This document shows positions 8,188-37,604 of a DNA stretch of 64,000 nt, piece after piece. The DNA comes from Octopus vulgaris (Eukaryota). The position numbers and the translations under genes are program-made. The notes beneath the pieces are model-generated. The model was not told the origin of the DNA, ran no database searches, and saw only the letters and a list, made by a program, of their open reading frames with translations. Each line of letters begins with the position of its first letter. The first letter of the stretch is position 1. The DNA lies in contig OX597825.1 of the NCBI GenBank assembly GCA_951406725.2, positions 79,918,001-79,982,000 on the forward strand, written 5' to 3'.

Positions 8188-8242
8188 ATGTTACTGCTAT
8201 CATTTTCAAGTATGTTAGTCTTCATATTAATCCATTTTACAA
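8188..8242 (+). CDS. Novel type I membrane protein, coding exon 1 (signal peptide MLLLSFSSMLVFILIHFT)
   Basis: ACCACCATG Kozak context at 8188; exon acceptor ttttctcctttacag ends at 8022; donor A|GTAAGT (phase 1). Joins exon 2 to give ...IHFTNTHA|TIWDV, a plausible signal-peptidase site. Confidence 0.8.
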
Positions 8243-9429
8243 GTAAGTCCTCTTTGTTTTTTATATTTATTTGTGCAATCATGGCTGTGTTTGATCAAAA
8301 AGTTTGTTTTCAGGACACTTTCTGTTGTATGGTACCTTGGATTACTGTCTTACACAGTAGTCTCAGGCTGACTAGAGACTGTGGAGTGGAACTTCATATG
8401 TGGAGATTTGTAGAAGCTGCTTGTAGAGTTCATTTTTGTTCCTATTCTTGGGTGGTGGACTTCATCTATTACTTGGTTCAAACTTTCTTAAAAGCAAACC
8501 ACCTGAGATTGCACCTGATTATATGATAGTAACTACCTGTTTTAAAGTACTTGAAATTAAAACCTGGCATCTAAATTTCATGTTAATTTGAGTTTAAAAC
8601 ATAAGCTTGAAAATAACTACATTATTTTACTGAATTCTTCATTATTTTCAATATAAATAGACAAAGGCAACATAAATATAGTAACATAAATGTGAAAGTG
8701 ATCTCAGTTAAAACATCATAATTGGTAGAGAGATAGAAAGTAGGAATCCATCAGAGAGAGCATTCCTATTACAGACTTCAACCTCCTCTCACTTTAATGT
8801 CACCAAATGGTCCTTAGGTACCTTTAAAAAAAAAGTGTTTTCTTTTACATATTAAGATGCACACACACACACACACACACACACACACACACACACACAC
8901 ACACACACACACACACACACAGGTTAATAGTATAATGCTATATCTAAATACTATATGAATATGGGTGTGTTAGTCCATGGAAGTGTGTCTGAAATCACAC
9001 ATCCATGTCTAAGAAATTGTTTGTCATGCATTCAAGCAGGATTTTTTTATTCATTTTGTATTGTTCTGTGGTAGAGTCTGAACATTTGTAAAATGGTCAA
9101 ATTTTACAAAAACCATGGATTCCAAACAATATCTTCTTATATCCTTCATTCTAAACATAAGAAAAAGAAAAAAAACATTCCCTCCAACTTAGCAGAAAGG
9201 ATTTGCACGATTGTGTCAAATGTTAAAAAAACATAATCAAAGTCTGGAAGGCCAAATCAAGTGTGAGGGAAAGTGCTGTTGCAGCACGCTGCTTTATTTA
9301 GCATTTATCAGTATATTTCTGGGTCCTCTTGTGTGACCAGTTGAACATAGTCCCAGTCAGTTTCTATCTACGTGAGACACCTTCTCATCTGCCATGACCA
9401 TGTGGCATATGGTAAACCAGCATGAGCCA

Positions 9430-10176
9430 TTTACACAGACTGGAAGAGCTGAAAGAAATACTAATTGAAAGAGCATTTCCATTCAATCTTATTGTGAATG
9501 GAATAGAAAGAGTAAAAATGTTTATATCTCCATTTTCTTAGAAAAGTAAAAAGTAAAGCCCCTCACAAAATGTTTTACTTTATGTCTCTACATTTAAACC
9601 AAGAAATTGTGAAATATTTAACTACATACAAAACAACGAACCTTGAAAATCAAAAAATGGAAAAATTACTAGAAAATCAATTTGTTATTGAAAACAAAAG
9701 GTAACCAAAGACTTACAAGAATATTCTAACTTTCAGCAAAGCTTTTCAAACAATTGCCCAACCCCATGATTTCTAAATGTGGTAGCCTGAACTGTGGTAC
9801 ATGTCTGTACTTAAATGATAGCTTGGAATTCAAATTTAAGCACAGACATGTCTTCAAAGTAAAATAAAATTTCTCTTGCAACTTCTTATACTCAATTTAT
9901 GCCATAACAAACTGTAGAAACTGCATCAGACTGATGGGATTATCACTTTGTGGACAATTGATGATGCACAAGCAAGAAATAAGGGGAGAAAAAAAGAAAG
10001 AAAGAAACAGGAACACATAGTAACTTATACTGAAATGGAACCACCCAATTTAAAGATTTTTCTATTTTACAAATGCTCAGATTCTACCATGTAACATCTA
10101 TGAACAAATAAAGGAAGAAAATTTATTATGAAATAAAAGCCTTGCTGGAATAATTGACAAACAATTTCAGGCAACT
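9430..10176 (+). mobile_element. Penelope-like element 3' fragment (RT C-terminus, Cys linker and GIY-YIG remnants)
   Basis: ELKEILIERAFPFNLIVNGIERVK, CGSLNCGTCLYL and FSCN...IYAI remnants, broken by stops and frameshifts. Confidence 0.7.
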
Positions 10177-10375
10177 TAGGATACACTTGTATGGACACAC
10201 ATGCACACGCGCACACACACACATATTCACATAGTTTTTGATATATACAATCTACCATTAACTCATGTGTGCATGGGTGCAAGTCATTATGTATGTGTGT
10301 GTGTATGAGAATATATGTATGTGTGTATGAGTAAATATGAACGTGTGTATCTATGTTTGTGTCTTTTTATTTATC

Positions 10376-10570
10376 ATAAGGGCTATTTGGTTGTTGTTGC
10401 TAGTAATCTTGATGGATTACCAAAGTAGGCACTCCAAAATATAAGGGCTATTTGGTTGTTGTTGCTAGTAATCTTGATGGATTACCAAAGTAGGCACTCC
10501 AAAATATAAGGGCTATTTGGTTATTGTTGCTAGTAATCATGATGGATTACTAAAGAAGGCACTTTGAAAT
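10376..10570. repeat. 65-bp tandem repeat x3
   Basis: Units ataagggctatttgg... start at 10376, 10441 and 10506. Confidence 0.92.
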
Positions 10571-34439: not shown

Positions 34440-34620
34440 CATTTACTGTCAAACAAAACTCTTCCTCCACAGAGTTGAAGGTTTGTCCATTTAATGAATT
34501 TTGAAGAGACTGAAATAGGTAGAAATCTGAAGGCACCAGTTCAGGTGAATTTTGAGGGTGTGACATACTAACCCAGCCAATCCCTAGTAAATTCTGTCAT
34601 GTCTGCAAAAAAGTGTGGCA
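34440..34620 (-). mobile_element. mariner (DD34D) transposase fragment
   Basis: HPQNSPELVPSDFYLFQSLQNSLNG resembles HPPYSPDLAPSDYHLFRSL. Confidence 0.75.
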
Positions 34621-35584
34621 TTGTCCTAATGACAGACATTACCCTAATATATATATATATATATGTATATATATATATATACATACAAATAAATATATAT
34701 ATACATATACATACATACATACATATATATATACATACATGGTGGCTGCCCCCTCCATATCGAGTATAGCCATTGCGCGAAGCTTAATAAATGTTGTTAT
34801 CGTGCAATGCCTGTGCAAGAAGACTTTTTTTAAAGTGAGGAAAGGCTGTGCACTGAGTCAGTCCCACTCACTAAGCAACAGCAGCCATAATCCGAAAAGA
34901 AGAACAAGTCAACATCATCAGTAACCACTGAGCCGCAGGTTTTATGTCGGAGTTATCCCAGTTACCTGAGTTATCTTCTCCTAGAAGGATGCCCTAACAA
35001 AGGCTAGGAGTCCTTCATTCTCAATGGTTTAACCGCACGATCGGGTATTCAGTCTGATTATTTCTATGTCCCCGCGCATGATACAGTCTTAAGCCTTAAG
35101 AGAGAAAAAAAAATACACATTTATTGGATGGCCGTTGACTCTCAAGAGTTCCTCCGCCCTTTGACAGGTTTTGTTTTTCATCCCACAGGGTGTCCAATAA
35201 ACACCCTCCTCACCAAGCAAGCTTGGTGGGGTTGCCGGTTTAGTCGCCGACGACCTGACCATACAACAGGTTGTACTGGGTTACATGTTACCAGTAGCAC
35301 TCGAAAGTGACCTGACATACATACATACATACATACATACATACATACATACATACATACATACATACATACACACACACATAATACACACACACACACA
35401 TATATATATTGATCCGGTTCTTGACTGAAGATTGAAGGCTTCGAATGTCCCGTCCGTGTTTTTTGTATCATCTAAATGTTTTACGTTCTTGTCCCAGTTT
35501 GTATTTTTCTACATAAAAATATATATATATATATATATATATATATATATATATATATATATATATATATATATATATATATAT

Positions 35585-35785
35585 AGCAGTTGCAAGGTGT
35601 TTACAGTTTCATATTTACCTTTAAATTAACATTTAATACATGTGCTTAATCATCATCATCATCATCATCATCATCGTTTAAGCGGACGTTAAACGATGAT
35701 GATGATGATGATGATGATGATTAAGCACATGTATTAAATGTTAATTTAAAGGTAAATATGAAACTGTAAACACCTTGCAACTGCT
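35585..35785. repeat. Perfect 97-bp inverted repeat with a 7-nt loop
   Basis: Arms 35585-35681 and 35689-35785 are exact reverse complements; loop GCGGACG. Confidence 0.97.
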
Positions 35786-37345
35786 GTGATAATTATTAAC
35801 TGGTAATTGCATGGTAAATGTGTATTTTTATACACTTTGGACCTGCCACCTCATTGTTTTTGGTCAAGAGTTTCGCCTCCAGCTATTCGTTATGTCAGTC
35901 AACACATACACTGACACACCATTCTGCTGTGGTGGTCGTAAACACGGAAAGTTGCTGATGTGTAATGTTGTTCATATTAGGATCTAGATTATTCATTTAT
36001 TTCAAATATAATAGAAATAAGGTGATCTTAATGTTATCACATTAGAATTAAAAGTGAAACAATAGTATAGCTTTATCACATTATAGATGATAAGCAGCTT
36101 TCTTTATTATAGTACAGATGTGACTAATTCGGTGAAACATTACTTTCATTATTGAAACATCGTCACTCTCGTAATGCAACACTTTGTAATTTTGGTTGAA
36201 ATTGAAAGTATGAAACTATTTTCACTTTCTAATGAAACCTGTCATTGCAGAGCAGTGTCTTTCAAATAACTATATCTAGTTGTTGAAATAATATAGAATA
36301 TATGTAAATGAAAATATAATTTATTTGGTAGCCAAAATACTACTGAATATTTTGATACCCCATATATCAAAATGGGCAACACAATATTGGAATGCATAAG
36401 GAACATATGTGCATGCACACACACATGCACACATTCTCTCTCTCTTTCACTTTTAGAGCATATGTAAGGTATGAAACACCAGCATTTCTCTGTCATCCAC
36501 TATCCTTGTCTTTCATCTTCTAGAGAAACTTGTTTTCTGTCTCTGTTTCTTTCTCTTGTCTCTGTCTTTTTCTCGTTTTGTATTTCTCCTGCTCATTCAG
36601 TAAAAATTTATTTGAAGAGAGCAGAAATTGAAAGAGAAAGCAAAAAAGACAAAGAGAAAGAAAGTGAAGGAGATGAGATAGTGAAAGATGTATGTACATG
36701 TATATGAAATGGACATGTGTGTGTGTGTGTGTGCGTGCATGCCTATGTGAGAGAGAGAGAGAGAGAGACAAATAGAGTGAGTGGGATTCACACAGACAGG
36801 CAGACATTCTCATCTTTATATATAGATAAATTACATAATTGATTAATCTGCATATATATGATCAAAACATTAAAAACTCATTCTCTTTACTGAGTGTCGA
36901 GCTAATACATTCCATGTGCATGTCCTCTTGTTGTCTGTTAATTTTATTATTTGTTTAATTGAATTGACTCTCACTGTCTCGCTGTCTCTCTGTATGTATG
37001 TATGTGTATATATATATATATATATATATATATATATATATATATATATATATATGACGCTAAATGATGATGATGATATATGTATATATATATGCATGCC
37101 CACAAGCAAGCATATATGTACATACACAAGCTCACATATGTATGTATACATACATATGTGGGTGTTTGTGAGCACATGTATAAGACAAGAAAGATCGGAG
37201 AGAGATGGGAAGAGAGAAAGAGTGAGAGAGAAATATTTTCATCCAAATTATACATACATACATACATACATACAGACATACATGCACATCTATACACACA
37301 GGTACGCACACACACGCATATACACATATATATTGTCTATTGCAG

Positions 37346-37604
37346 ATATAATATACTCAAAAACAAAATACACAAAGATCACATGCCAGCACATCAAGTC
37401 AATCAAGTCAATCAAGCTGATCAAATTGATCAAATTGATGATATCGATCAAGCAGATGAAGCCCTTCCTGCAGAGAATATCTGTCGTGCCGTGCAAAACT
37501 CTGATTCAGTTTATGGCAATGAAATTGAATTAGAATTATACTCTCTACAGCAAAACCCTAGAGGTCCATGTGAAAATGAAGATCCAAGAGCAACATTACA
37601 TTAA
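37346..37604 (+). CDS. Novel type I membrane protein, exon 12 (cytoplasmic tail, stop)
   Basis: Acceptor tattgtctattgcag, phase 2; RYNILKNKIHK (basic stop-transfer), QVN/QAD/QID triplet repeats, VYGNE and LYSL motifs; TAA at 37602-37604. Confidence 0.8.

Follow-up and report, generated by a model that had tools for sequence, protein, structure and literature searches.

A membrane protein gene of Octopus vulgaris with stacked, probably PLAT-type extracellular modules: a candidate recognition receptor family

The question raised by this locus of Octopus vulgaris is whether the exons scattered between positions 8,188 and 37,604 of a 64,000-nucleotide stretch of DNA (hereafter the window; assembly GCA_951406725.2, contig OX597825.1, positions 79,918,001 to 79,982,000, forward strand) make up one gene and, if so, what type of protein it encodes. 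A first-pass annotation, made from the letters alone, had proposed a hidden 542-residue receptor or adhesion-like protein with four tandem, two-exon, PLAT-like extracellular modules. The gene is real, with its third exon corrected, and its product is predicted to be a single-pass membrane protein belonging to an expanded family. The boldest reading, at a probability of only about 0.35, is that octopods may have built a receptor repertoire on PLAT instead of the immunoglobulin (Ig), leucine-rich repeat (LRR) or lectin folds, with a two-exon module stacked three to five times, a phosphotyrosine tail, clustered paralogues, exchangeable outer modules and soluble decoys, serving immune or self recognition.

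The splice features of the proposed model are confirmed on the letters of the window: all 11 introns are bounded by GT..AG with matching phases, and the 1629 nucleotides run without internal stop to one terminal stop codon. Judged by orthologue annotation, 11 of the 12 exons are right, the exception being exon 3. Mapping of the proteins annotated in three species (O. sinensis, O. bimaculoides and O. vulgaris) placed the real exon 3 at 16086-16173 (88 nucleotides, phase 0-1, flanked by AG and GTAAG); it encodes a 30-residue segment of the annotated proteins and this segment is kept across the family together with its two cysteines (each in 32 of 34 alignment rows). The stretch first taken for exon 3 (17322-17376) is a chance open stretch that is intronic, lies outside the protein and is absent from annotated orthologues; in upstream copy A it is inverted and out of order, ahead of exon 3. 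An acceptor/donor filter on 11909-20607 returned 12 chance phase 0-1 candidates, this stretch included, and missed the real exon. The corrected product has 553 rather than 542 residues and is identical to the uncharacterised O. sinensis RefSeq protein XP_029643555.1 at 541 of 553, and exon 6 is a 100% match to an O. vulgaris protein. Three Octopus species have the gene annotated as uncharacterised, with neither fold nor function attached, so it is not hidden; the O. vulgaris annotation at the locus is a 1009-residue chimera of tandem copies (CAI9731411.1).

Reads from four runs, whose status as RNA is our guess, were placed on 16345-23195 only. Contigs from three of these runs (X1, X2 and X6, from two studies, probably RNA) join exon 4 to exon 5 and exon 5 to exon 6 at GT..AG, but the exon 3 first proposed is not on the contigs, since those of X1 and X2 extend 61 nucleotides upstream of exon 4 with sequence not lying on 17322-17376. 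Downstream, the X1 contig extends 424 nucleotides, equal to the summed length of exons 7-9. Run X3 displayed no exon joint in the reads placed on this region, and X3 and X6 gave low, unassigned cover (depth about 1.1) in the bin 17261-17489. Because of the region covered by reads, the nine other junctions, including that between exons 3 and 4, rest on splice signals and orthologue annotation.

All exons lie on the forward (+) strand. Exon 1 (8188-8242, phase 0-1, residues 1-18) carries the start codon, shared with XP_029643555.1, and a predicted signal peptide, which ends in exon 2 (11712-11908, residues 19-84); the hydrophobic N-terminus terminates in a small-x-Ala pattern kept in relatives. 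Each of the four modules consists of a long phase 1-0 exon with an early Trp (197, 206, 233 and 230 nucleotides) followed by a short phase 0-1 exon (88, 94, 94 and 100 nucleotides), the equal length of exons 5 and 7 having been noted at first pass. Module 1 comprises the remainder of exon 2 and exon 3 (residues 85-113, Cys100/Cys104); module 2, exon 4 (20608-20813, residues 114-182) and exon 5 (21739-21832, Cys196/Cys209); module 3, exon 6 (22644-22876, residues 214-291) and exon 7 (23701-23794, Cys305/Cys318); and module 4, exon 8 (28398-28627, residues 323-399), whose protein is identical in three tandem copies, and exon 9 (28732-28831, residues 400-432). A short stalk with two sequons (exon 10, 32473-32514, phase 1-1) leads to a single helix without charged residues (exon 11, 34240-34303, 64 nucleotides, phase 1-2) and to an acidic, predicted disordered tail of 86 residues with Tyr524 (in YxN), Tyr533 and the stop codon (exon 12, 37346-37604). 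The sole AATAAA or ATTAAA within 3 kb past the stop, at 38526-38531 (+), is a candidate polyadenylation signal.

The topology proposed for this protein is supported by prediction. The six N-glycosylation sequons and the one membrane helix are present, and the eight ectodomain cysteines comprise four conserved pairs (22/29, 23/26, 32/34, 32/34, 32/33, 32/34, 33/33 and 32/33 rows), which fit an extracellular location of the modules. In an AlphaFold2 model from a 39-row alignment (mean predicted local distance difference test score, pLDDT, 73.6), the four domains are all-beta, residues 440-479 form a helix and the tail scores below 50. Based on hydropathy, cysteine pairs, sequons and this model, the product is predicted to be a type I membrane glycoprotein. 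Neither Pfam nor PDB sequence searches nor the model revealed a lipase or lipoxygenase catalytic domain.

Are the modules PLAT domains? In structure comparison of the predicted model, modules 3 and 4 have the PLAT sandwich topology, with lipase and lipoxygenase membrane-binding domains as top matches; the nearest structures with PLAT/LH2 (PF01477) are the LPL C-terminal domain (6ob0, 6u7m), RAB6IP1 (3cwz), lipoxygenase N-termini (1lox, 3o8y) and the clostridial alpha-toxin C-domain (1olp). The AlphaFold and Foldseek check thus predicts a PLAT fold for these two modules, which Ig fits worse, with Ig chains appearing only as poor whole-chain or low-Z rows. The top rows of whole-chain Foldseek (ferlins, LILR/PirB, complement) had root-mean-square deviations of 19-34 and were rejected as arrangement noise. 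The PLAT fold lists reach modules 3 and 4; modules 1 and 2 are all-beta in the model, and module 2 (exon 4) has a weak, in-register profile match to PLAT. Module 1 is tied to module 2 by profile comparison (E 0.007), the other module-module comparisons being weak. We surmise that all four modules are likely PLAT. The likeness first noted has structural support in modules 3 and 4, a weak profile match in module 2 and only indirect grounds in module 1.

Sequence searches were largely silent on this point. Neither 6 exon pieces nor 5 proteins produced a PLAT match in Pfam at E<=10, PLAT was not among the 25 of 54 families shown for the 39-row alignment, and all three types of query yielded membrane-helix noise only. 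Among the best candidates of a Pfam PLAT scan of the genome, 0 of 16 matches fell at family loci. PDB sequence searches found nothing below E 0.28, no protein of the family scored below E 0.04 against a PLAT hidden Markov model built on octopus sequences, and the ESM Atlas gave no usable match, indicating neither absence nor novelty. The family is invisible to Pfam, and database entries present its members as uncharacterised proteins without relation to each other, one being a chimera of tandem copies.

A possible origin of the module came from the 16 Pfam PLAT genome matches, all of which were retrieved, with splice signals inspected around 21 pieces. In a gene at C19:57.20 Mb, a PLAT domain of 48.5 bits is encoded by a 248-nucleotide phase 1-0 exon with an early Trp and an 88-nucleotide phase 0-1 exon, the same two-exon unit as in the four modules; the phase-0 intron breaks the domain four codons past the conserved second Trp, which in the alignment is where module 2 has its intron. 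Next come a Ser/Thr stalk and a membrane helix, all exons being predicted from sequence. A donor like this one was absent from the other pieces among the 21 inspected, and the first exon of the C19 gene was searched for and not found. At C23:3.59 Mb, a single-exon relative comprises a signal-like start, a PLAT of 35.6 bits, a stalk and a helix. Because these two genes show extracellular PLAT on octopus membrane proteins, the family likely stacked such a module, and a C19-type, two-exon, phase 1-1 extracellular PLAT is a candidate source, giving an origin by exon shuffling that can be tested. Alternatively, the module may have come from a lipase, LPL being the best structural match; LPL has a C445-C465 disulfide (PMC6358717). 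Like the family, the C19 and C23 genes place PLAT ahead of a C-terminal membrane helix; unlike it, they have one canonical PLAT, a long mucin-type Ser/Thr stalk and a very short tail. They also share a membrane-proximal motif (genes at L045:195-9542 and L028:1524-3554; 17 genome matches, 9 on C14, no Pfam family) that is not seen in the stacked-PLAT family. Elsewhere, six single-exon canonical PLAT domains cluster at C20:70.11-70.47 Mb and are likely lipoxygenase-type N-termini.

These data bear on whether the likeness is convergent, the modules being generic eight-stranded sandwiches without PLAT descent. We hold this to be very improbable: only PLAT-bearing chains head the three VIA structure lists, with a clear gap, the intron position and phases are common to the modules and the Pfam-positive C19 gene, and the module 2 profile match is in register.

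With respect to known PLAT proteins, the family differs from PLAT/LH2 domains at large in its 7-18% identity, lack of a Pfam match and of a catalytic domain (which sets the gene apart from lipases and lipoxygenases), and four copies on a single-pass membrane protein. The polycystin-1 family has REJ/GAIN, multiple helices and a cytosolic PLAT after the first helix; the gene has one helix, N-terminal modules and no such Pfam family. LOXHD1, presumably cytosolic, resembles the family in its tandem PLAT domains. It has up to 15 PLAT repeats and one coiled coil, with no membrane helix mentioned in the available part of the source (PMC11387651). A LOXHD1-like multi-PLAT locus with split exons is found at C11:99.27-99.35 Mb; its repeats often start at a phase-1 acceptor, but they are Pfam-positive with inner introns elsewhere, whereas our gene has four Pfam-negative modules and one helix. 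Extracellular PLAT by itself is nothing unusual, for lipase C-terminal domains, the spider mite protein TuPLAT10 and the two octopus genes above have it; the novelty therefore lies in a tandem ectodomain with a tyrosine tail and in the family expansion.

TuPLAT10 (180 residues, one InterPro-positive PLAT, predicted signal peptide and helix; bioRxiv 10.64898/2026.05.13.724795) and plant single-PLAT proteins carry PLAT without an enzyme, as the family does; unlike the family, TuPLAT10 has a single domain and no signalling tail is described in the accessible portion of the preprint, which proposes a membrane-tethered lipid carrier. Together with the usual binding of PLAT to membranes or lipid particles, this raises the prospect of a receptor that captures lipids or lipoproteins, either to take them up or to sense membranes that are damaged or foreign. 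The lipase and lipoxygenase domains heading the structural matches would suit it, as would the Cys pair ending modules 2 and 3, placed like C445-C465 of LPL (PMC6358717; the positional equivalence is our reading). We nevertheless deem it unlikely, given that the module consensus lacks the loop motifs of canonical PLAT, that no module reaches Pfam PLAT and that 15 fast-changing paralogues seem more than uptake would need.

A paralogue expansion, suggested at first pass as a thing to check, was found. A genome search with module 3 gave 16 matches, one a duplicated exon, and hence 15 or more loci, of which C12, where the window lies, has ten, C10 two and C26 three, the counts being lower bounds with intactness checked for a minority of loci. 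Among 1.84 billion representatives there were 25 matches (21 Octopus, 2 Argonauta hians, 2 without name), narrowing the earlier "cephalopod-specific" to incirrate octopods among named matches. A word-based search starting from Argonauta sequences recovered nothing beyond the query itself, so that the case for absence from squid and cuttlefish is a weak one, based on a single HMMER scan with one sequence. For 31 named, nearly full-length members, a quick tree that omits fragments, isoforms and the chimera revealed subfamilies common to O. bimaculoides and O. sinensis/vulgaris and set both Argonauta rows apart, with long branches. The number of modules per member is three (P0013, P0051), four or five, the last through a doubled module 2 (P0012, P0035, P0045). 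Mean pairwise identity of modules 1-4 is 36, 46, 46 and 55%, and in 6 of 8 close pairs module 4 has or shares the top value.

Two further copies lie 50 and 110 kb upstream, with frames open through the helix. Copies A and C show a silent divergence of 0.25 in module 1, against 0.02-0.04 for modules 3 and 4, and module 1 of the O. bimaculoides orthologue is 87% like A and 64% like C-type; this patchwork suggests exchange between neighbouring copies. It also bears on an adhesion or cell-identity role, in which a four-domain rod would bind like paralogues in the manner of protocadherins or Dscam isoforms. The tandem beta-sandwich rod on one membrane helix, the many clustered paralogues and the subfamilies kept between O. 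bimaculoides and O. sinensis/vulgaris are in keeping with such a role, but the fast turnover with young near-identical copies, the patchy silent divergence, the membrane-helix-less isoforms, the tyrosine-motif tails and the separation of both Argonauta members from all Octopus in the quick tree are not, and we consider it somewhat unlikely.

Several side observations concern these copies. In copy A (C12:79834248-79845270), exon 6 occurs twice with about 9 kb of an 81-bp satellite between, overlapping the exon end; the second exon 6 is without an AG acceptor, and the same satellite interrupts the last exon of this copy. One satellite unit lies at 22836-22978 of the window. An open stretch at 1544-1621 (+) is used as coding in the chimera CAI9731411.1 and may be an additional final exon of upstream copy B; the part of the window downstream of the gene yielded no equivalent. 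Some names mislead: the UniRef entry "Vitellogenin domain-containing" is the O. bimaculoides orthologue (P0003), and a family fragment (P0056) shares a cluster with a probably fused model that bears the name mitochondrial ribosomal L4.

The tail may serve in signalling. Of six patterns tried on related tails, hydrophobic-Tyr, YxN and YxxL/I/V, which we take to be Src-family and SH2 sites, exceeded shuffled expectation in 12 non-redundant tails (23 redundant tails were also counted). In both O. sinensis and O. bimaculoides, the RefSeq isoform X2 omits the exon for the helix and has no membrane helix; here the same skip, computed from the sequence, would shift the frame and yield 508 residues without a membrane helix. 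Its end, encoded by the alternative frame of 37346-37533, is a basic Lys/Ile/Leu stretch with a three-residue period. This stretch comes from the repeats that encode the acidic tail and is present in the isoforms of the two other species.

LILR, KIR, SIRP and Hydractinia Alr are non-catalytic tyrosine-phosphorylated receptors of the Ig superfamily. Like them, the family has an ectodomain of tandem sandwiches, paralogues in clusters, a varying number of domains, soluble forms made by splicing and, on a predicted type I protein without an enzyme, a tyrosine-motif tail (disorder predicted, motifs enriched); unlike them, it has a predicted PLAT fold, no enrichment of immunoreceptor tyrosine-based inhibitory or activation motifs (ITIM, ITAM) and no charge in the helix core, with one edge Arg in 12 members as the only charged helix residue for an adaptor. 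The Biomphalaria polymorphic transmembrane clusters PTC1/GRC and PTC2 consist of clustered, highly variable, single-pass mollusc genes with a proposed role in non-self recognition that has genetic support (PMC7494358, available part); the family is likewise clustered, variable and single-pass but is without genetic support for a role, and there is no sequence link found and no PLAT named in that part of PMC7494358. The putative stacked-PLAT receptor resembles both groups and is a member of neither.

The most likely reading, to which we give even odds, is a non-catalytic recognition receptor that uses PLAT where other receptors use Ig domains. If so, we speculate that the outer, variable module 1 would bind a paralogue-specific partner, non-self or self, on cells, with the inner modules as a conserved spacer; the disordered tail would signal through phosphorylated tyrosines recruiting SH2 adaptors, and soluble forms lacking the helix could act as decoys that tune the receptor. 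Starting from a two-exon, phase 1-1, C19-like extracellular PLAT, the family would have diversified as copies were duplicated in tandem, gained or lost modules and exchanged sequence with adjacent copies.

A number of results weigh against this reading. For the fold, Foldseek E-values are weak (best 0.003, at the 7-18% identities above), modules 1, 3 and 4 have no profile signal against PLAT, and the match of the C19 PLAT to module 2 reaches no better than E 0.083, across 22 columns. In the tails, ITIM and ITAM-like motifs occur in 1 of 12 each without enrichment, Y[ED] is not enriched (p 0.21) and the gene's own tail has only two distal tyrosines. As for a variable outer module, module 1 has the lowest identity in only 5 of 11 close pairs, and positive selection on it was considered and found unsupported, given that dN/dS (replacement over silent divergence) is 0.61-0.65 for copy A vs. 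B and C; copies B and C differ by 7 replacement changes and 0 silent ones, which is within chance (about 0.2, by hand arithmetic). A sensory or reproductive recognition protein (sucker, skin or gamete) rather than one of defence is a further option, as octopod restriction, here seen among named matches, and fast divergence also fit such genes; nothing favours it over defence and we regard it as quite unlikely.

Variable animal recognition receptors are built from Ig, LRR, C-type lectin and SRCR folds. If the recognition reading is true, PLAT adds a fold to this list, and the family gives candidate genes for cephalopod immunity or self recognition. We found no description of a tandem-PLAT receptor in the literature and no naming of the seven family LOC ids, supplements and subscription journals being outside the scope of this search; Albertin et al. 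2022 report clade-specific squid arrays without family names, PLAT being unnamed in the part available (PMC9068888).

The window contains further features. A high-copy retroelement remnant (18000-20450) lies within intron 3 and a 2.9-kb degenerate GC-rich simple-repeat array (25053-27928) within intron 7; just past the stop codon is a Mariner-like fragment (37790-38530, +, PF17906), followed by a reverse-transcriptase fragment (43425-43865, +, PF00078). Further downstream are two tRNA-Leu(AAG) genes (52321-52402, +; 55976-56059, -) and a 323-codon open frame with an ISXO2-like transposase domain (58192-59163, -, PF12762, E 6e-16).

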